From IMG/VR virus record IMGVR_UViG_3300010370_000030, positions 1 through 64,000 of that record: 64,000 nucleotides of DNA. One strand, 5' to 3'. A model generated the notes under the pieces. It did no database searches. It had not been told where the DNA came from and saw nothing but the letters and a program-made list of their open reading frames with translations. Numbering within the stretch: the first letter of the stretch is position 1; every line of letters begins with the position of its first letter. Shown here piece after piece: positions 1,086 through 8,198 of the stretch. Made by a program: the position numbers and the translations under genes. Origin of the DNA: a virus.

Positions 1086-1318
1086 TTTTGCATAGTAGGA
1101 AATGCGTTTAAATACGGGGGGTGGTGTGAGGTGATTTGGACCTCAGACTCTCTCAAAAGTCAACAGACCATCTCTCAATCACTTTCCCATAATACAAAAT
1201 CATTTCCCACAATACAAAATACTCCCCACCTCAACATTTCATACCTCAACTATTCACATCTAAACATTTCATACCTCAACAATCCCACAATACAAAATCA
1301 TTTCCTACAATGTAAAAA
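1086..1318. repeat. About 20-nt dispersed repeat (CATTTCCyAcAATrcAAAAT) plus AACATTTCATACCTCAAC x2
   Basis: Copies near 1181-1200, 1201-1220, 1281-1298, 1299-1318 and an inverted copy near 1086-1104. Confidence 0.7.
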
Positions 1319-1330
1319 ACCCCTCCAAAT

Positions 1331-1368
1331 AAAAAAAAAGAATCTAGCTTTTACACTAGATTCTTTTT
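1331..1368 (-). terminator. Rho-independent terminator of the C-free gene (possibly bidirectional)
   Basis: Stem AAAAAGAATCTAG / CTAGATTCTTTTT with 8-nt loop; U9 tract on the minus strand. Confidence 0.8.
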
Positions 1369-1383
1369 AATTATCAACCCCTT

Positions 1384-1773
1384 CTAATCATTCTTCACAT
1401 TCACAAACACACTATACTCCTCCTCACCATAACTCACACAATACATCCACTCCTCATTCCCACTCTCCCACAACATAAACCCATCATCATACCACTCATT
1501 CCAATCACAATCCTCATCATCACATTCCTCTCCAAACTCCTTCCTAATATTCTCCTTCCACTCCTCAAACCCCATATACTCATCACTCTTCCTAAACTCC
1601 TCTAACCCTCCCCTACATCCAAACACAAACTCATATACTCCATCCCCTCCCTCTTCAATAATCTCCACAATATCACTATACTCAAACCCATTATTCAAAT
1701 ACTCAATCTCACTCTTCATCTTCTCAATCATCACACTCACATTCACAACTTTATTAATCACAACTTTACTCAT
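1384..1773 (-). CDS. Cytosine-free, highly acidic 129-aa protein (DNA-mimic / anti-defence candidate)
   Basis: ATG at 1773 with GGAG 6 nt upstream; own promoter and terminator; no C in the coding strand; 35 D/E versus 11 K/R; no A, P, T, H or Q. Confidence 0.85.
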   Translation of the reverse strand: MSKVVINKVVNVSVMIEKMKSEIEYLNNGFEYSDIVEIIEEGGDGVYEFVFGCRGGLEEFRKSDEYMGFEEWKENIRKEFGEECDDEDCDWNEWYDDGFMLWESGNEEWMYCVSYGEEEYSVFVNVKND

Positions 1774-1815
1774 TTCTCTCTCCATTAAATTAAACACCTC
1801 TCAAACAACAACAAC

Positions 1816-1845
1816 ATATTATAACAAACACATTCTCTCATCAAC
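1816..1845 (-). promoter_or_regulatory. Sigma70-type early promoter, C-free variant
   Basis: GTTGATG-N17-TAATAT, also containing extended -10 TGTTATAAT; parallels GTTGACC-N17-TAATAT at 3264 and 3639. Confidence 0.75.
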
Positions 1846-1864
1846 TCTCTATCAAAATACCCAA

Positions 1865-1902: not shown

Positions 1903-2074
1903 AAGCTCATGCAAAGTATGAGACAATGAGTGGGGGACCGTTTGCGCGGGGTTGGCGGTGGCGCGCTCTCGCCGTCCATCCCCAGAGTGCCTGTTCGAAC
2001 GCATAGAGACATCATCCATAAAAAAAGAGACCAAGACAACAGACCACATATCCTACATTGTAGGAAATAAATAT

Positions 2075-2104
2075 GTTGACTTCTGTTTTGGTCTATGAGA
2101 CAGT
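2075..2104 (+). promoter_or_regulatory. Repeated early promoter 1
   Basis: GTTGACT-N17 containing TGGTCT-GACAGT-GGCC. Confidence 0.7.
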
Positions 2105-2130
2105 GGCCTTGTCGTTAAACAAAAGGACTA

Positions 2131-2265
2131 ATGATGAAGGCAATCTACAAAGGGACGGAGTACTACATCATCTCTGTGCTTGGCGAATTGATCGAGATCG
2201 CCCCTACCAAACACGGTGCAGGGTCGTTCCTTGCGCATAAAGACTTTATCACCATTGTGGAGTAA
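2131..2265 (+). CDS. Hypothetical 44-aa protein (not in ORF track)
   Basis: MMKAIYKGTEYY...ITIVE; AAGGA RBS; follows promoter. Confidence 0.7.
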   Translation: MMKAIYKGTEYYIISVLGELIEIAPTKHGAGSFLAHKDFITIVE

Positions 2266-2267
2266 TC

Positions 2268-2441
2268 ATGAAGCGAAGCGCTATCAAGACTGGCATCTGG
2301 GGCGGCTTTGCCGCCTGGGTAGGAGTGCAGACATACAGGCTGATCACAGCCGTTGTCATGTTCATCCAATTGGTGTTCGGACTCTCTCTTGCTGCTGTAT
2401 CGCTCTGGATCGCCGTACACTACAATCTAATACCCAACTGA
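2268..2441 (+). CDS. Small membrane protein, 57 aa (not in ORF track)
   Basis: MKRSAIKTGIWGGFAAWVG...; GGAG RBS; hydrophobic segments. Confidence 0.7.
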   Translation: MKRSAIKTGIWGGFAAWVGVQTYRLITAVVMFIQLVFGLSLAAVSLWIAVHYNLIPN

Positions 2442-2471
2442 GTTGACCTGGTATTTGGTCTGTGCTATACT
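2442..2471 (+). promoter_or_regulatory. Repeated early promoter 2
   Basis: GTTGACC-N17(TGGTCT)-TATACT. Confidence 0.85.
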
Positions 2472-2498
2472 GACCTCACTGTTCAAATGGAGTTCCAA

Positions 2499-2855
2499 AT
2501 GAAAGTGTTCGTGTACTTCAACTTGCACAAGAAGTGCTGGTCTGTCAAAGCTCTCGAGGGTCCCCGCAAGGGCCGGGTGGTCCAGCATGCGAAGACTATC
2601 GCTCTGCATAACGTCACATTCAAGGTGTCCGAGGCTGGACGTCAACGAGTGCTGCGGGAGAAGAAGAAGAATGTGCATGCAGGAGCTGTTGGCACGCTGG
2701 ATGTGTACTCATATGAGCCCAGCTCTGTTGACGGTCTCGCCAAGGTCTCATACAATCCCTACAAGGCAGGACACTTCGTCAACAAAGAGACGAATGAGCC
2801 TGTCTACACCGCGCAGTATGCGTATCTCATTGACAAAACCGTGATGGTGAAATAA
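2499..2855 (+). CDS. Conserved phage hypothetical protein
   Basis: VYFNLHKK...GRQRVLREKKKNVHA...YNPY motif family; GGAG RBS. Confidence 0.8.
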   Translation: MKVFVYFNLHKKCWSVKALEGPRKGRVVQHAKTIALHNVTFKVSEAGRQRVLREKKKNVHAGAVGTLDVYSYEPSSVDGLAKVSYNPYKAGHFVNKETNEPVYTAQYAYLIDKTVMVK

Positions 2856-3263
2856 ATGTTTGATTCCACTCGCTTCGCTTCCTACAACGACTACAACGAC
2901 TATCTCACCCGCAAGCTCGCTCATTACAATGAGTGGCTGGGAGATCCCAAGCGGACGTTCAAGAATGGTCCCTACCCAGGGTTCCCTGAGGACCTCGAGC
3001 ATGCAGCTCGTATCCAGTCCTTCAAGAAGGCAGCTGCTCAGGAGTTCGAGAAGAAGGCGAACCCTCCCATTGAGCGCAAGAAGAAGTCAAAGAAGGCAAA
3101 GAAGACTGCTGATGGTGGTCCTACCAAACAAGAGCGTGCTGTTGACATCTTCAAGCGTTTGAGTGGGGAGAAGGCTGCGACCATCCAAGCAATCCAGGAT
3201 GAGCTCGGCATGTCGCTCGCTGGTGCCACTACATACTTCTACAATGCAAAGAAGTTGGTCTGA
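2856..3263 (+). CDS. Two-domain protein with HTH-like C-terminus
   Basis: C-terminus GMSLAGATTYFYNAKK matches ORF 5012; N-terminus matches ORF 13016. Confidence 0.8.
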   Translation: MFDSTRFASYNDYNDYLTRKLAHYNEWLGDPKRTFKNGPYPGFPEDLEHAARIQSFKKAAAQEFEKKANPPIERKKKSKKAKKTADGGPTKQERAVDIFKRLSGEKAATIQAIQDELGMSLAGATTYFYNAKKLV

Positions 3264-3306
3264 GTTGACCTAAGGTCTGGTCTGTTGTAATATGGCCAGA
3301 CCTTAA
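3264..3306 (+). promoter_or_regulatory. Repeated early promoter 3 with stem-loop
   Basis: GTTGACC-N17-TAATAT; AAGGTCTGGTC/GGCCAGACCTT stem encloses the -10. Confidence 0.85.
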
Positions 3307-3319
3307 CAAGGAGATAGAG

Positions 3320-3631
3320 ATGTCAGTTCAAATCAAATCTGTTGTTCGTCCTACTCAACTCGTTCGCAATGTAATGTACAAACACGAGAGTACACGTGGA
3401 CTCGTGTTCACAAACAAGTACAAAACTTGTAGAACTGTCAAGTGCTATTTTGATCCCAAAGTAGGTGCAGAGGAACTCATTTCAGACATCACATCAGTTC
3501 TACAAACAGCAGGTGTACAAGAGTTCAAAATCAAAACCCTAAAGTACACGGATCCATTTCTCTTGGGTCGTATGTGTTACACCTTTAATTCTCTCATTGT
3601 AAGAATCCCTTTCTCAGAACAAGCTCAATAA
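3320..3631 (+). CDS. Hypothetical protein (cassette between near-identical promoters)
   Basis: AAGGAG RBS; ORF track. Confidence 0.75.
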   Translation: MSVQIKSVVRPTQLVRNVMYKHESTRGLVFTNKYKTCRTVKCYFDPKVGAEELISDITSVLQTAGVQEFKIKTLKYTDPFLLGRMCYTFNSLIVRIPFSEQAQ

Positions 3632-3638
3632 ACAAATA

Positions 3639-3681
3639 GTTGACCTAAGGTCTGGTCTGTAGTAATATGGCCAGACCTTAA
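3639..3681 (+). promoter_or_regulatory. Repeated early promoter 4 (near-identical to 3)
   Basis: Identical to 3264-3306 except one base. Confidence 0.85.
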
Positions 3682-3695
3682 ATAAGGAGATTGAG

Positions 3696-3923
3696 ATGTA
3701 CGTTCAAGTCTACATTCCTACTGTGATTCTCGAGATGGTTGAAGAGGCCTTTGAAGGGCTCTTTGGCCGCAGGCCTACCACAAAGGAGCTGCGGGACTTC
3801 TTCGCAGCAGACGTAGCAACACTGTACGATCAAGGCATTCACGAAGCTCCTACAAACGAGCTCGAGGACTCCCTCCATCACTTCTTCTATCACAAATTCA
3901 ACACTCCTCCGGAGGCTGCATAA
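3696..3923 (+). CDS. Hypothetical acidic protein
   Basis: AAGGAG RBS; ORF track. Confidence 0.75.
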   Translation: MYVQVYIPTVILEMVEEAFEGLFGRRPTTKELRDFFAADVATLYDQGIHEAPTNELEDSLHHFFYHKFNTPPEAA

Positions 3924-4060
3924 TGAGCTGGGCACGCAAGATGGCTGACAAGCGGAAGATCAATCGTGTATTGGTCCGCTGCAAGAATGTCCGACACAAC
4001 GACAAGCGTACTAAGGTAATGGAGCGTGAGCTCCGCAAAGAAGAGCGAGGTGTAGCATGA
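3923..4060 (+). CDS. Small basic protein, 45 aa
   Basis: MSWARKMADKRK...; TAATG coupling; GGAGG RBS. Confidence 0.65.
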   Translation: MSWARKMADKRKINRVLVRCKNVRHNDKRTKVMERELRKEERGVA

Positions 4061-4218
4061 GCCGTGCGAAAGAACTCCTGGAAGACATCAAAGAAGATAT
4101 CCGCGATGGGTTCCTCTCCGACAAAAGCATTGCACGGAAGTATGATGTGCCTATTGAATGGGTGTACATTGCGTGGGACCAGCTCTGTCAAGAAGAACAT
4201 AATTGTGAGTTGACCTGA
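4057..4218 (+). CDS. Small HTH-like protein, 53 aa
   Basis: MSRAKELLEDI...SDKSIARKYDVPIEWV; ATGA overlap. Confidence 0.65.
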   Translation: MSRAKELLEDIKEDIRDGFLSDKSIARKYDVPIEWVYIAWDQLCQEEHNCELT

Positions 4219-4238
4219 TACCTGGTCTATAGTATGAT
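4209..4238 (+). promoter_or_regulatory. Repeated early promoter 5
   Basis: GTTGACC-N17(TGGTCT)-TATGAT-GGCC. Confidence 0.85.
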
Positions 4239-4266
4239 GGCCTCACGTTAAACAAAGGAGTTAGTA

Positions 4267-4497
4267 ATGAGCCAAGCACAATTCTTCTACGAAGTCAATC
4301 GGGAGCAAGCAGAGATGGAAGATGTCAACGCCGAGCTGCAGATCCTTGCAGACGAAGTGCAGCAGGAAGTAATCGAAGAGCAGTTCCGTCGGTTCCTGCA
4401 GGAAGTATTCGGAGCTCTCTACGAGGAGATCGATCTGGGTTGTGAGTTCGACCTCATCCAGGATATGGAAGCTGGTTGGGACCTTCATAAGGCCTGA
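4267..4497 (+). CDS. Acidic small protein
   Basis: 20 D/E in 76 aa; AAGGAG RBS. Confidence 0.75.
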   Translation: MSQAQFFYEVNREQAEMEDVNAELQILADEVQQEVIEEQFRRFLQEVFGALYEEIDLGCEFDLIQDMEAGWDLHKA

Positions 4498-4527
4498 GTT
4501 GACCAAAGGGCTGGTCTAGTATAGACT
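4498..4527 (+). promoter_or_regulatory. Repeated early promoter 6
   Basis: GTTGACC-N17(TGGTCT)-TAGACT-GGCC with stem. Confidence 0.85.
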
Positions 4528-4552
4528 GGCCCTACTTTAACAGGAGATGGTA

Positions 4553-4954
4553 ATGAAAGCTGGAACGTACTACATCGGTGACCTCTGCTATGTGTTCAAC
4601 ATGGACGACTGGAATGATGTGTGCAACATCACGATGGATGGACGTGAGGGTGAGTTTGAGCTGCCAGATGGTCGCAAGTTCGCACTCTACAACACTGCAT
4701 ATGGTGATGGAGAGTACAACGACCAGTTTGGCAACAAATACCCTGTCGACTCTGGCACTATCGGATGTGTGTTGTGGAAAGACACTTCTCGCTATGAGTA
4801 CATCCTTGCTGATGTGGGTGCTGTTGTTGACATGAAAGAGGATTTCGATACCTGCTCAGATGGGAACGGTCTCATCAAAATCGGTAGCACGACTATCGAC
4901 ACTGCCGAAGAATGGCTCGATCAGTATGATGAAGAGAATGAAGAATGGAGTTGA
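4553..4954 (+). CDS. Conserved acidic phage protein
   Basis: YYIGDLCY...TAYGDG...VDSGTIG motifs; AGGAG RBS. Confidence 0.75.
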   Translation: MKAGTYYIGDLCYVFNMDDWNDVCNITMDGREGEFELPDGRKFALYNTAYGDGEYNDQFGNKYPVDSGTIGCVLWKDTSRYEYILADVGAVVDMKEDFDTCSDGNGLIKIGSTTIDTAEEWLDQYDEENEEWS

Positions 4955-4979
4955 CCTGAAATCTGGTCTATGGTATGCT
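4950..4979 (+). promoter_or_regulatory. Repeated early promoter 7
   Basis: GTTGACC-N17(TGGTCT)-TATGCT-GGCC. Confidence 0.85.
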
Positions 4980-5011
4980 GGCCTTACGTTAATCAATTAA
5001 AGGAGTTTCAA

Positions 5012-5320
5012 ATGAACCAAGTCTTCTCAATGCTCACCCAGTCCCTCATCGATGGCAAAGATGCTGCTGCTGCAGTAGTTGCTCCTGCAAAGAAGAAAGC
5101 TGTCCGGGCTAAGCCTGCAGCGAAGAAGGATCTTGCAGAGCAGGTGGTCGAAGTAGTAAAGCTAAAGGCTCGCCCAGGCACGAAGGCTGATCTCGCTCTG
5201 GAGATCGTGCAGAAGGCAGGCACTCGTAAAGAAGCGATCGCTGAGATCATGGATGTGTGTGGTATGACGGTGCAGGGAGCAACGACGTACTACTACAATG
5301 CAAAGAAGAAGCTGGCCTAA
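5012..5320 (+). CDS. Lys/Ala-rich protein with HTH-like C-terminus
   Basis: GMTVQGATTYYYNAKK paralogous to ORF 2856; AAGGAG RBS. Confidence 0.8.
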   Translation: MNQVFSMLTQSLIDGKDAAAAVVAPAKKKAVRAKPAAKKDLAEQVVEVVKLKARPGTKADLALEIVQKAGTRKEAIAEIMDVCGMTVQGATTYYYNAKKKLA

Positions 5321-5357
5321 GTTGACAACAAGGCTGGCCTACAACAGGCCAGCCTTT
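5321..5357 (+). promoter_or_regulatory. Degenerate repeat unit: -35 box plus perfect hairpin, no -10
   Basis: GTTGACA followed by AAGGCTGGCCT/AGGCCAGCCTT. Confidence 0.55.
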
Positions 5358-5379
5358 CATTCATCATAAGGAGTCTATT

Positions 5380-5682
5380 ATGTTCGCAATGCCTAACACT
5401 CGTCAAGTTCGTCGTATCATTCGTGAAGCTGCTCGTGATATCGGTGTCACGTTCGAGCGTCATTCGTGGACAGACAAAGTGGATGTTGAGAATCCGAAGC
5501 TGCGTCAGGTCTGCTTGAGTCCTCTCTATCTGGGACCTGAGCCTCACAGCAAGTATGACGAGCTGATCAACATTATCCGCAATCGTCTTGCTCAACACAA
5601 CCTCCTCATCATTCAAGGGTTGTCTGATCATCTCTATGTTCGGTTCTATGGCGAGATCGCCCCTCGCAAAAAAAAGGTCTGA
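5380..5682 (+). CDS. Hypothetical protein
   Basis: AAGGAG RBS; ORF track. Confidence 0.7.
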   Translation: MFAMPNTRQVRRIIREAARDIGVTFERHSWTDKVDVENPKLRQVCLSPLYLGPEPHSKYDELINIIRNRLAQHNLLIIQGLSDHLYVRFYGEIAPRKKKV

Positions 5683-5687
5683 CCTGA

Positions 5688-5717
5688 GTTGACCGTGAGG
5701 CTGGTCTATGGGATACT
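5688..5717 (+). promoter_or_regulatory. Repeated early promoter 9
   Basis: GTTGACC-N17(TGGTCT)-GATACT-GGCC. Confidence 0.8.
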
Positions 5718-5745
5718 GGCCTCACGTTAAACAAAGGAGTTAGTG

Positions 5746-5943
5746 ATGTACATCAATCTTCAGCCGAGCAAGACCTACAAGACCCGCGAGAACGCCATCA
5801 AGGCAGCGATGACGCAGGTCTGCAGCAAGCGTGACGATCTGCGGTTCATCATCAGCATCACGGAAGACGGTCGCTTCTTCCCAGTGTTCCTTGGTGTCAA
5901 TGCTCTGCCGGTGATCCACATCGGATTCTGTGTGGCAGCCTAA
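5746..5943 (+). CDS. Hypothetical protein
   Basis: KTYKTRENAIKA...GRFFPVF; AAGGAG RBS. Confidence 0.7.
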   Translation: MYINLQPSKTYKTRENAIKAAMTQVCSKRDDLRFIISITEDGRFFPVFLGVNALPVIHIGFCVAA

Positions 5944-5945
5944 GA

Positions 5946-5980
5946 GTTGACCAGGCCAGTGTTCTGAGGGATACTGGCCT
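5946..5980 (+). promoter_or_regulatory. Repeated early promoter 10
   Basis: GTTGACC-N17-GATACT; AGGCCAGT/ACTGGCCT stem. Confidence 0.8.
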
Positions 5981-6000
5981 CACTGTTAAACAAGGAGCTA

Positions 6001-6243
6001 ATGATGAGTGCAAACGAGATCAAAGTCTACGGCATGTCGGTCGAGCGCATCCAGGAAGAGTATGTCAACAGCATCACGGCTCAGTGCTGCGGCCTGGAGA
6101 TGGTTGTGGCTGGCATCCTGAGCGATGTGCAAGAGGTTGTGCCGTTTGACCATGTCAGGCCCGAGCAAATCCGTCAGCAGCTGAACATCGCTAAGTACCT
6201 CCTTACGCTGATGGCTCGGCAACGTCGTGAGCAGGTAGCATGA
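6001..6243 (+). CDS. Hypothetical protein
   Basis: AAGGAG RBS; ORF track. Confidence 0.75.
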   Translation: MMSANEIKVYGMSVERIQEEYVNSITAQCCGLEMVVAGILSDVQEVVPFDHVRPEQIRQQLNIAKYLLTLMARQRREQVA

Positions 6244-6425
6244 AGTACTCAGAGATGTCCTTCGTCGCCTTCCTGCAGGCGGCGGAGGATTATGCAGAAG
6301 CAGAGGGTATGCTGGCGGAGTTCACGACTACGTACCAGTACTACAGGGTGTACTGCAGTGTGAAGGACAGCACACTGCTTGCCCTCAACGATGTGTTCGG
6401 CAGAGAATGTCCTCTCATTCATTAA
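6240..6425 (+). CDS. Hypothetical protein
   Basis: ATGA coupling. Confidence 0.65.
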   Translation: MKYSEMSFVAFLQAAEDYAEAEGMLAEFTTTYQYYRVYCSVKDSTLLALNDVFGRECPLIH

Positions 6426-6435
6426 GGAGTTCAAC

Positions 6436-6795
6436 ATGAGTACTCGTGCATTCATCGGCATGCAACAGAGCAACGGCAAACTGATTGGCAACTACTGTCA
6501 CTATGATGGATACCCGTCGCACGTCGGTAAGCAGCTTGTTGCGTACTACAGCACCGCTGAGCATGCCATCGCTCTGATCGGTGGTCCGCAGATCCGCTGC
6601 TTTGTTGAAGGGGAAGTCGAGCGCTTCAAGGACAGCGATATTGGCACGGAGACATTTGAGAGTGTGGATGAGGTACTCAACAGCGGCTACGACTACTGCT
6701 ACCTCTTCTCCAAGGAGGAGCAGTGCTGGAAGTGTTTCGGTCGGGATTATGGCCCCTACGCATCCATCATCGTCTCCAAAGAGATCCCGCGTTGA
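6436..6795 (+). CDS. Conserved phage protein (YCHxDGYP family)
   Basis: MSTRAFIG...YCHYDGYP; AAGGAG RBS. Confidence 0.8.
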   Translation: MSTRAFIGMQQSNGKLIGNYCHYDGYPSHVGKQLVAYYSTAEHAIALIGGPQIRCFVEGEVERFKDSDIGTETFESVDEVLNSGYDYCYLFSKEEQCWKCFGRDYGPYASIIVSKEIPR

Positions 6796-6820
6796 CCTGT
6801 TACCTGGTCTAGGGGATACT
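6791..6820 (+). promoter_or_regulatory. Repeated early promoter 11
   Basis: GTTGACC-N17(TGGTCT)-GATACT. Confidence 0.8.
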
Positions 6821-6849
6821 CTCCCTACTGTCAAACAAAGGAGCTGATC

Positions 6850-7065
6850 ATGCAACAACAGAGCTGGGTGAAAGATGGCGAGCGTATCCGTGGGAACTAC
6901 CATGGGAAGGTTGTGGAGGGTGTTGTGCATGACAGCCGAGTAAAGTACGGCGGCATGGTACAGTACAGAGTCATGCTTGACAACACTGTTCGCCTGCCAT
7001 GGCGCTCTGAGCCAGTCAGCGTAGTCTTGCTCGACGAGAGCGAAGTGCTCCCCAGCGAAGTTTGA
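6850..7065 (+). CDS. Hypothetical protein (SH3-like pattern)
   Basis: AAGGAG RBS; G-x-V-x-G-x-V...SRVKYGG-x-VQY. Confidence 0.7.
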   Translation: MQQQSWVKDGERIRGNYHGKVVEGVVHDSRVKYGGMVQYRVMLDNTVRLPWRSEPVSVVLLDESEVLPSEV

Positions 7066-7067
7066 GT

Positions 7068-7268
7068 GCCTGCAGGGGCCCCTGCGGCCCCCTGCAGAGT
7101 CGTACTGCTCCCCTGCAGCCCGCCGGGGGCCCGCCTTTTTTAACGCGCAGGTACCCGTACCCGGGTTCCAGTACTTGGCTGTGTGTCTCCAAAGGGGGGC
7201 CCGCCTTGTTTTATCCGAATCTGAAAAAAGCTGTCTCAAAAAATTTTTTTGGCAAAAAATCGCGAAAA
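7068..7268. repeat. GC-rich palindrome and direct-repeat cluster followed by A-tracts
   Basis: GCAGGGGCCCCTGC palindrome, CCCCTGC x3, GGGGGCCCGCCTT x2, GTAC x4, AAAAATTTTT. Confidence 0.75.
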
Positions 7269-7281
7269 GGAGCGTCTGCAA

Positions 7282-7926
7282 ATGATCTGGGCTATCCGAA
7301 TTACATTCTTCTTATTGGCGCCTCTCATCCTCTATTGGCAGTATAGAGACGTGCAGAATCTTTTTGCGAGTGTAGAGGCACTCTATGAGAATCAGATTGC
7401 TATCGTACAGGGACAGTTAGCAATTACATCAGAGATCAAGGAGTTGCGAGCAGAAGTATTGCAGCAACCAGTGCCACAGGCGCCTGCACCTAGCATTAAG
7501 CCTCCTTTGCAGGTGATCCGTACAGATCATCAATTGAAGCATGACCCACTTGACATCTTCTGTATGGCAAAGAACATATATCATGAAGCTGCACATGAGC
7601 CTGAGATTGGTCGCTATGCAGTTGCGCAGGTAACACTTAACCGCAAAATGAATCCTAAGTATCCAAAGAAGATTTGTGATGTGATCCTGGATCCATATCA
7701 GTTTAGTTGGGCAAACGATAAGAAGATTCGCTGGACAAATCCTAAAGGTCCTGCATGGGAGGAATCCAAGCGTATTGCATATAATGTAGTAGTAGAGGGG
7801 TATAGAGTGAAAGGACTAGAGCATGGCCTCTTCTATCATGCAGACTATGTCAGTCCTAAATGGCGCGATAACAATGCTCATATCACTCAGATCGGTAGAC
7901 ATATCTTCTATAGCCGGGCACTTTGA
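7282..7926 (+). CDS. Cell wall hydrolase, SleB/Hydrolase_2 family, with N-terminal TM anchor
   Basis: CMAKNIYHEA...AVAQVTLNR...QFSW...FYHADYV...IGRHIFY. Confidence 0.9.
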   Translation: MIWAIRITFFLLAPLILYWQYRDVQNLFASVEALYENQIAIVQGQLAITSEIKELRAEVLQQPVPQAPAPSIKPPLQVIRTDHQLKHDPLDIFCMAKNIYHEAAHEPEIGRYAVAQVTLNRKMNPKYPKKICDVILDPYQFSWANDKKIRWTNPKGPAWEESKRIAYNVVVEGYRVKGLEHGLFYHADYVSPKWRDNNAHITQIGRHIFYSRAL

Positions 7927-7938
7927 AGGAGCGCTGAT

Positions 7939-8163
7939 ATGAACAAACGAATTCTAGAGCTTGCTGAACAGGCTGGGATTACGACTAACTTGGATACTGA
8001 TTACTTTGAAAAAGACGTCAATAAATGGGTTGACTATTATTCAGAAAAGTTCGCCGAACTAATCATCCAGGAATGCATTGACAACCTACTTTGGCATGGG
8101 CATGATGAGGCTGCAAGCCAGTTGGAATGGCTACGAGGAAATCGTTTCGGAATTAAAAAGTAA
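7939..8163 (+). CDS. MNxRIxELA...FAELIxxEC family protein 1
   Basis: Paralog of ORFs 10063, 10720, 11060. Confidence 0.75.
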   Translation: MNKRILELAEQAGITTNLDTDYFEKDVNKWVDYYSEKFAELIIQECIDNLLWHGHDEAASQLEWLRGNRFGIKK

Positions 8164-8167
8164 TTAT

Positions 8168-8198
8168 GTTGACTCTTTAGCTGGTCTCGTTGTATAGT
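8168..8198 (+). promoter_or_regulatory. Repeated early promoter 12
   Basis: GTTGACT-N18(TGGTCT)-TATAGT. Confidence 0.75.

Follow-up and report, generated by a model that had tools for sequence, protein, structure and literature searches.

A repeat-bounded early-gene cassette of a T4-like phage with near-complete exclusion of guanine from one strand, non-coding flanks included

The closest described counterparts of the locus treated here are the promoter-early stem-loop (PeSL) cassettes of the T4-type phages RB49 and phi1 (Arbiol et al., 2010, PMC2839356). These are small genes in a hyperplastic early region, which are bounded by sigma-70-type promoter cores and stem-loops and are swapped by recombination between repeats; in the portions of that paper on which we rely, no base exclusion is described for them (PMC2839356). 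A second point of comparison is the strand bias by which genomes avoid Rho: stretches of more than 150 nt with an excess of C over G are Rho targets, which sense strands avoid and antisense strands carry (Dierksheide et al., 2026, PMC13323073). Here we describe a tract at positions 1167-1864 of a 64-kb stretch of DNA (the window) from an uncultured T4-like freshwater phage, in which one strand of a whole early-gene cassette is virtually devoid of G. We file this cassette as an extreme variant of both the PeSL cassettes and the Rho-avoiding strand bias; it would be a new kind of feature if Rho proved irrelevant.

The window comprises the first 64 kb of an 81,807-nt (81.8-kb) IMG/VR contig (G000) with a completeness estimate of 36%. 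Its source is a myovirus with T4-type baseplate genes, 13 tRNA genes and a tmRNA, and near-identical DNA occurs in metagenomes of lake, river and drinking water and in some labelled as marine (15 studies). A recount of the 698 nt at 1167-1864 gave 247 A, 247 C, 200 T and four G, in agreement with the first-pass annotation of this DNA, which had placed the four G at 1312, 1340, 1347 and 1359. This leaves G-free runs of 505 nt (1360-1864) and 145 nt (1167-1311), while the next longest one in the whole contig measures 44 nt and all runs outside the tract that lack either G or C stay below 52 nt. At the frequency of G in the genome, 698 nt would contain four G or fewer with a binomial probability of 1.8e-67. 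Even taken alone, the two non-coding ends are improbable at the G frequency of 0.22 of the neighbouring non-coding DNA, the probability of having no G being 1.6e-16 over the 145 nt of the 3' flank and 2e-6 over the 52 nt of 1813-1864. The GC skew of the tract is -0.98 and its AT skew +0.1; on the C-free minus strand G (35%) is enriched equally with T (35%), with A at 29%. The message of the minus-strand gene in the tract is C-free, since the plus strand is nearly without G. The cassette is composed as follows.

1157-1166, no strand: left 10-bp direct repeat AAGTCAACAG, minus strand CTGTTGACTT; two exact copies in the window against about 0.1 expected
1167-1311, minus strand: 3' flank; plus strand with G 0, C 34%, A 39% and T 28%
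1306-1314, no strand: palindrome TACAATGTA with G1312, the single spot of the flank where a half-site extends towards the full palindrome TCCTRCATTGTAGGA
1329-1374, no strand: bidirectional intrinsic terminator with A-run, 14-bp stem and T-run (-19.4 kcal/mol, z -6.8)
1384-1773, minus strand: C-free gene for a 129-aa acidic protein, with Shine-Dalgarno sequence GGAGAGAG at 1783-1776
1813-1864, minus strand: G-free promoter region, called manually, with -35 TTGATG at 1844-1839 and extended -10 TGTTATAAT at 1826-1818
1863-1872, no strand: right direct repeat AAGTCAACAG, also a recombination joint
1865-1902, no strand: inverted repeat (stem-loop) with two inverted GTTGAC cores (-19.4 kcal/mol, z -4.5)

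Followed from right to left on the minus strand, the order is thus stem-loop (1902-1865), promoter, leader, open reading frame (ORF, 1773-1384), terminator (1374-1329) and repeats (1311-1167). The tract forms a discrete cassette between 1157-1166 and 1863-1872, the sole two exact copies of AAGTCAACAG in the window, and G1166 at the end of the left copy is the last G preceding it. Both borders carry an early promoter core, as in PeSL cassettes: CTGTTGACTT, the minus-strand form of AAGTCAACAG, is a -35-type core resembling the GTTGAC promoters of the neighbouring early array, in which promoters of this type are read at 2075, 2443 and 3265. The hairpin at 1865-1902, which the first-pass annotation had noted as an inverted repeat at 1865 and which is indeed present, lies next to the promoter and is a putative terminator; it forms the end of the upstream minus-strand unit and includes the -35 of a plus strand promoter. 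As to recombination, a second DNA variant (run X3) matches the window over 1861-1914, and to the left of 1861 it has 133 nt which are unlike the window and contain G. Because the variant differs from this point on, we regard the right edge of the tract as a natural recombination joint. The same variant also departs from the window left of 951. With PeSL cassettes the locus shares exact 10-bp repeats at its two edges, the hairpin and the variant diverging at 1861; it differs in the exclusion of G from one strand of the whole cassette.

To the left, the window holds 290 nt of non-coding DNA between convergent units (879-1166), with the previously noted G-rich run GGGGGGTGGTGTGAGGTG at 1116-1133 and a small hairpin, GAGGTGATTTGGACCTC, at 1129-1145.

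The minus-strand ORF at 1384-1773 is a real gene: in DNA of the tract's composition, which should bring a stop once in 10 codons, 129 open codons have a probability of 1.5e-6, and an open frame as long as the observed one did not arise in any of 2000 shuffles. Asp and Glu make up 27% of its product, which contains no Pro, His, Gln, Thr or Ala. These are the five amino acids whose every codon contains C. The family, assembled by sequence and profile search, has 36 representatives, among them a homologue of 92% identity (P0001); all five residues are absent in 21 of the 36, and most of the remaining members have few of them. The AlphaFold2 model of the 129-aa protein has a pLDDT of 90.5, and no family or fold match was obtained in Pfam, PHROGs, Foldseek/PDB, VIA-align (best Z 3.4) or the ESM Atlas. 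Neither the tract nor its protein found a match in the phage collection (blastn, tblastn), and no relatives of the family were found in the genome contig collection. A profile search of viral contigs with a larger alignment yielded no further loci, a single-protein search with a neighbouring island gene returned the self-match only, and on 800-2300 no Rfam match rose above noise. Of the four bases a complete ORF can dispense with C alone, because A, T and G are required for ATG and the stop codons; whatever the model, the polarity of the coding part is thus fixed, and it is the flanks alone that can tell whether RNA or DNA is constrained.

Comparison of relatives shows that G is selected against in the tract. 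Among relatives of at least 97% identity, 16 substitutions fall within the tract; none creates a G, all of them being exchanges among A, C and T. Outside it, 11 substitutions affect non-G sites, and six of them produce G (Fisher test inside versus outside, p ~0.002, or 0.02 without a gappy stretch). In the close relatives four substitutions lie in the flank (1180, 1181, 1190 and 1225), and none of these leads to G, a number too small to be telling on its own. Deeply diverged relatives (~47-53% protein identity) keep C-free tails of 108-110 nt beyond their terminators. Because no G was created in the relatives and because the distant ones have C-free tails, the rule looks selected and maintained in the flanks as well. 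The flank also has small ORFs, of at most 20 codons, but these were set aside, since the longest contains all four flank substitutions of the relative. A G-quadruplex in the flank was likewise dropped, the G-runs being 17-55 nt apart.

The exclusion is wider than the mRNA as bounded by the nearest promoter and the intrinsic terminator, as had been claimed before, and the four remaining G are placed as described: G1340, G1347 and G1359 provide the three G:C pairs of the terminator stem by pairing with C1363, C1356 and C1344 in the hairpin 1329-1374, and G1312 pairs with C1308 in TACAATGTA. The flank around G1312 is repetitive. Repeats of 20 bp (TCCCAYAATACAAAAT...) form two pairs in it, at 1185/1205 and 1283/1303, and 15-bp repeats occur three times at 1227-1283; in addition there are four TCCYAYAAT half-sites, paired at a distance of 20 bp and all in the sole orientation that is G-less. 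The corresponding full palindrome, TCCTRCATTGTAGGA, needs both G and C on one strand. The tract uses its G-free half only, G1312 being a single step towards the full form, and this use of half-sites is the best argument for G occurring only where symmetry demands it. In the window, TCCTRCATTGTAGGA has five matches with up to two mismatches against 0.4 expected, including 1064-1078, 1086-1100 and 2051-2065, and these copies bracket the whole 1-kb region. The palindrome is probably the operator of a phage regulator. TTCCTAC motifs also stand ahead of the island of a related locus, L001 (5440-5480). The two enclosing copies are the following.

1064-1078, no strand: full palindrome TCCTGCATTGTAGGA, with partner copy at 2051-2065; the pair encloses the whole region
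2051-2065, no strand: second full palindrome TCCTACATTGTAGGA, between divergent promoters

From the G-free flanks and the placement of the remaining G it had been inferred that the constraint acts on DNA, one strand being kept without G and the other without C over the whole cassette in order to avoid recognition sites that mix G and C, because a template base is modified or attacked, or owing to long single-strandedness. The exclusion does span the entire repeat-bounded cassette, including a promoter and a tail with DNA-type elements (direct palindrome half-sites inside, the full form just outside), and the few G are confined to places where symmetry calls for them. Tails without C beyond the terminator are also seen in the related loci L004 and L001, the latter is adjoined by a tract of flipped polarity for which no clear promoter is seen, and a C-less strand cannot form stable hairpins. 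Nevertheless we consider a DNA-level constraint rather unlikely. What holds of the earlier conclusion is that the exclusion extends beyond the mRNA and that the flanks are seemingly maintained; this is not evidence for DNA as such, and the edges of the tract in relatives speak against it.

These edges could be read in four independent islands in all. In L005 the best promoter, TTGACT-17-TATAAT (11/12), ends at 837 and contains five C; -35, spacer and discriminator all have C. A C-free run of 707 nt (840-1546) starts 3 nt after its -10 and ends in the terminator stem, where C resumes at once. In L004 the promoter TTTACT-17-TATACT ends at 3991, and this last base of the -10 is the start of the C-free run. 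The C-free tracts of L005 and L004 thus begin 0-3 nt from the -10 of promoters which themselves contain C, and that of L005 stops at the terminator; therefore the rule follows transcription. L004 has a further 110 nt without C beyond its terminator, a tail that starts right after a second TATACT, the same -10 as that of the main promoter. L001 has a 1.7-kb island of four genes with a single C in the ~1560 nt upstream of the terminator stem, two more in the stem arms and a C-free tail of 108 nt. On its upstream side lies a 217-nt tract of opposite polarity (G-free, ~38% C), just downstream of the terminator of an upstream co-directional gene, a position equivalent to that of the 3' flank in the window. 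The G-free (5537-5753) and C-free (5750-5937) tracts of L001 join at CTATAG and overlap by TATA, and no clear divergent promoter is seen there. Over the lineages, then, the 5' edge follows the transcription start and the C-free 3' edge overshoots the terminator in three of four. There is one island per genome in the window phage and in L001, and the islands of relatives are longer, with two to four genes. Promoters inside islands swap the C of the -35, with GTTGAT for GTTGAC.

AT-only palindromes are not depleted in the four islands beyond what composition entails, with 224 4-mers against 245.7 +/- 13.5 expected and 62 6-mers against 67.8 +/- 8.2, and the terminator stems use CTAG, AGCT and GTAC, which disagrees with restriction-site avoidance. 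As for an avoided modification, no guanine-modification genes were found in the contigs searched, both of which are fragments: TGT/DpdA, QueC and GTP cyclohydrolase I had no match in the 36%-complete G000, and TGT and QueC had none in the 86%-complete relative G001. These are genes of 7-deazaguanine modification. (The L001 contig, of 155 kb, is 86% complete.) Decay by C-to-T change, suggested before in connection with persistent single-strandedness, is discarded as the cause on the grounds of composition, G being enriched on the C-free strand as much as T; in addition, the substitutions of relatives are balanced among A, C and T, and no polar pattern was seen in their contigs. Finally, the genome exceeds 150 kb, and there is no obvious benefit in shielding 0.7 kb of it against cutting. 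A variant in which the exclusion would be a property of the swappable DNA cassette, caused by attack on or modification of guanine in the read strand or by a single-stranded or excised circular stage, appears to us quite improbable for the same locus.

The flanks had been taken to be untranscribed, but this was an assumption. Two metatranscriptome contigs cover 1392-1796 and 1378-1829 only; as is the case for the RNA evidence throughout, they are of low depth, and their ends differ, one of them being adapter, so that missing cover on 1167-1311 and 1830-1864 speaks neither for nor against transcripts there. The contig covering 1378-1829 derives from an RNA library, represents a 97%-identical relative and extends at least 6 nt past, and thus upstream of, the predicted -10, although it may be DNA carry-over. 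The promoter itself is of the 'internal' form, with GTTGAT for GTTGAC, which relatives use inside islands under upstream read-through; its TTGATG at 1844-1839 is a C-to-T version of the GTTGAC core. The consensus promoter scan did not call this manually assigned promoter (1813-1864). A near-identical C-free promoter lies inside the L001 island, and a search of viral contigs with the 16-nt C-free promoter motif gave 35 loci, with a C-free tract only at an already known relative. The 5' flank may accordingly be described as a C-free promoter of internal type with a leader region, lying within transcribed space.

On the other side, the convergent plus strand gene stops at 878. No terminator-like site follows from 878 to 1335, and the only one in 900-2500 is the shared hairpin at 1335-1368, so that the 3' flank precedes the only terminator of the convergent gene. 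We infer from this that plus strand transcripts should cross 1167-1311. As plus strand RNA this region has a minimum free energy of 0.0 kcal/mol, with 34% C and no G, and its C-minus-G value of 0.31-0.38 per 80 nt compares with 0.21 at the 99.9th percentile of the rest of the genome. To judge from its composition and predicted folding it bears the signature of a Rho loading site; a long stretch with C in excess over G and little structure is what characterizes rut sites. The sense mRNA, too, is predicted to fold hardly at all, at -0.079 kcal/mol per nt, where windows of the genome have -0.254 +/- 0.037.

These data lead us to prefer a rule tied to transcription and not to the DNA duplex. That the constraint lies at the RNA level in one form or another we hold to be probable; that Rho or a Rho-like factor is the agent we propose tentatively, as the likeliest single candidate. 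Rho is favoured because a C-free sense strand would be the extreme of the published avoidance and its complement an ideal Rho target. The cassette would be a single, discrete, repeat-bounded early-gene unit of the PeSL type that encodes a conserved small acidic protein, and its sense RNA would lack C in leader, coding part and trailer alike, whereas RNA entering from the other side would be G-free, C-rich and unable to fold. RNA polymerase moving rightward would read the 3' flank, between the convergent stop and the shared terminator, as rut-like RNA. Rho could then load on this exposed C-rich, G-poor RNA, would find no grip on the sense message, and would halt convergent or antisense transcription before it enters the gene. 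Such a role would give the untranslated leader, the spacers and the tails a reason to obey the rule. The locus has in common with the published bias a sense strand with more G than C, opposite an antisense or convergent RNA that for more than 150 nt is rich in C, poor in G and without structure; it differs in that the published bias is statistical and genome-wide (PMC13323073), while here it is absolute and confined to one cassette among neighbouring early genes of ordinary composition.

Several observations weigh against Rho. Its avoidance is quantitative and should produce C-poor sequence, but there is no C at all in 505 nt of the window cassette and one in ~1560 nt of L001. The terminator is strong, so little leftward read-through into the 3' flank is expected, and the leftward promoters within the flank are weak (9/12 or manual calls). 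The phage's other early cassettes (2075-8198) face the same Rho and have ordinary composition. L005 has ordinary C directly past its terminator, so the C-free tail is not universal, and the transcripts over the flanks are predictions.

The strictness would fit an all-or-none penalty on each C in nascent RNA, exacted by an agent other than Rho such as CTP shortage, the chain-terminating CTP analogue ddhCTP, a C-specific RNase or C-to-U editing. Prokaryotic viperins reportedly make ddhCTP and block phage transcription. The message would then have to be finished while C is a liability, C being allowed only after the stop, in the terminator, and the flanks would be separate small C-free units or remnants of a longer island. 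The tract does start at the predicted transcription start in L005 and L004, and the only C of the islands are located in terminator stems, past the coding part. Moreover, the tail of L004 directly follows a second TATACT, and the lone minus-strand C of the window flank, that of the palindrome at 1306-1314, sits in a -35-like TTTACA belonging to a promoter-like site found by consensus scan (minus strand, 1316 to 1287, TTTACA-18-TATTGT, 9/12). Attack on C does not explain, however, why DNA should be C-free past a strong terminator or ahead of the start; the flank units would depend on weak promoters, and the other early genes of the phage, with normal C, would be hit too. We think this explanation unlikely.

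RNA lacking one nucleotide is familiar from the synthetic G-less and C-less cassettes that serve in vitro transcription. Like these, the cassette specifies an RNA without one nucleotide from its start to a defined end, which could be made without the respective nucleoside triphosphate; it differs in being natural, protein-coding and conserved in a family, and in that the exclusion extends outside the mapped unit.

If the rule applied to the message only, the flanks might be duplicated C-free promoter and spacer modules of a once longer island which have not yet gained C. The repeats of the flank do resemble C-free sequence upstream of promoters (GGGTATTTTG..., GTTGAG for GTTGAC), the islands of relatives comprise two to four genes, cassettes recombine at their boundary repeats, and four flank substitutions are too few to prove selection. 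Yet G on the C-free strand of the 3' flank reaches 34%, as in the gene, whereas adjacent spacers have 17-22%. A 27-nt block is common to the tail of L004 and the window flank (24/27 identical, p=0.002), and neither tail has acquired C even though identity between the proteins is down to about one half; apart from this block, no significant similarity was found in pairwise comparison of the tails of L001, L004 and the window. C also accumulates where the rule lapses, as judged from L003 and its ordinary neighbours. The relaxed homologue at 731-1141 of L003 has 15 C in 411 nt, mostly in alternative codons (TCC, AAC, CGA, GGC). Its leader and the first 13 of its codons have remained free of C; the genes downstream contain 10-14% C, and one of these is a C-containing homologue of a C-free L001 island gene. 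We therefore regard mere hitch-hiking of the flanks as doubtful at best.

That cassettes of this family recombine is also evident within a gene. In L002 (6001-6297), compared with L004 (4037-4405), the first ~200 nt are identical to L004 and C-free, and the 3' part is unrelated, contains C and encodes a different C-terminus (P0013). By sequence comparison this chimeric gene is a product of recombination within the coding region, and together with the X3 variant contig it parallels the cassette swapping of PeSL units.

The skew also raises the question of replication. T4 origins oriF and oriG use R-loops, and a purine-rich C-free transcript on a C-rich template might likewise prime replication or recombination, with the repeats as iterons. 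A GC skew of -0.98 is the maximum possible and extends over 0.7 kb, the sense RNA is unfolded, and 20-bp and 15-bp direct repeats lie beside a hairpin with A- and T-runs. The family is conserved as protein, however, neither an AT-rich unwinding element nor an initiator gene was identified, the cumulative GC skew does not switch at the locus except for the tract itself, and the tails of relatives are dissimilar save for the one 27-nt block, all of which makes an origin or R-loop function very improbable. GRINS (2021, PMC8256042) share with the tract an intense strand skew in coding DNA that is tied to recombination-prone repeats. They are, however, repeats within polyketide synthase genes, and the repeated copies with GC and AT skew that mark them are not found here: there is a single tract per genome and the AT skew is +0.1.

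Apart from these questions, a GC-rich element, TGGGG(A/T)GGACGGCGAGAGCG, adjoins the C-free cassette in four lineages, each copy with its own TTGACC-N17 promoter. It is located at 1925-2040 (minus strand) in the window, at ~3242 and 3706-3800 in L004, which has two copies, at 5206 in L002, at 1635-1720 in L005 and, in reverse, at ~560-600 in L003. A leaderless mini-ORF of 37-40 codons (M.S..SG[DG]GRRER...) is one possible reading in the window and L004, the copies differing at third codon positions; the copy in L005 is without ATG, and the element may instead act as RNA.

In full-text searches we found no paper on cytosine-free phage genes. The locus is a natural three-letter gene cassette, kept by selection in many uncultured phages, and we found no paper describing one. 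Its non-coding flanks are the one place where the question of RNA versus DNA can be tested. If a DNA-level constraint were true after all, 'three-letter DNA' would be a new kind of counter-defence architecture and not a feature of RNA. Should Rho prove not to be responsible, an activity against C in RNA or against G in template DNA would be indicated, and the conserved acidic protein would be a candidate counter-measure. If Rho is the agent, the cassette would represent the extreme end of a newly published constraint on composition and would work as a one-way insulator, in which the sense transcript is untouchable and incoming antisense transcription is killed.

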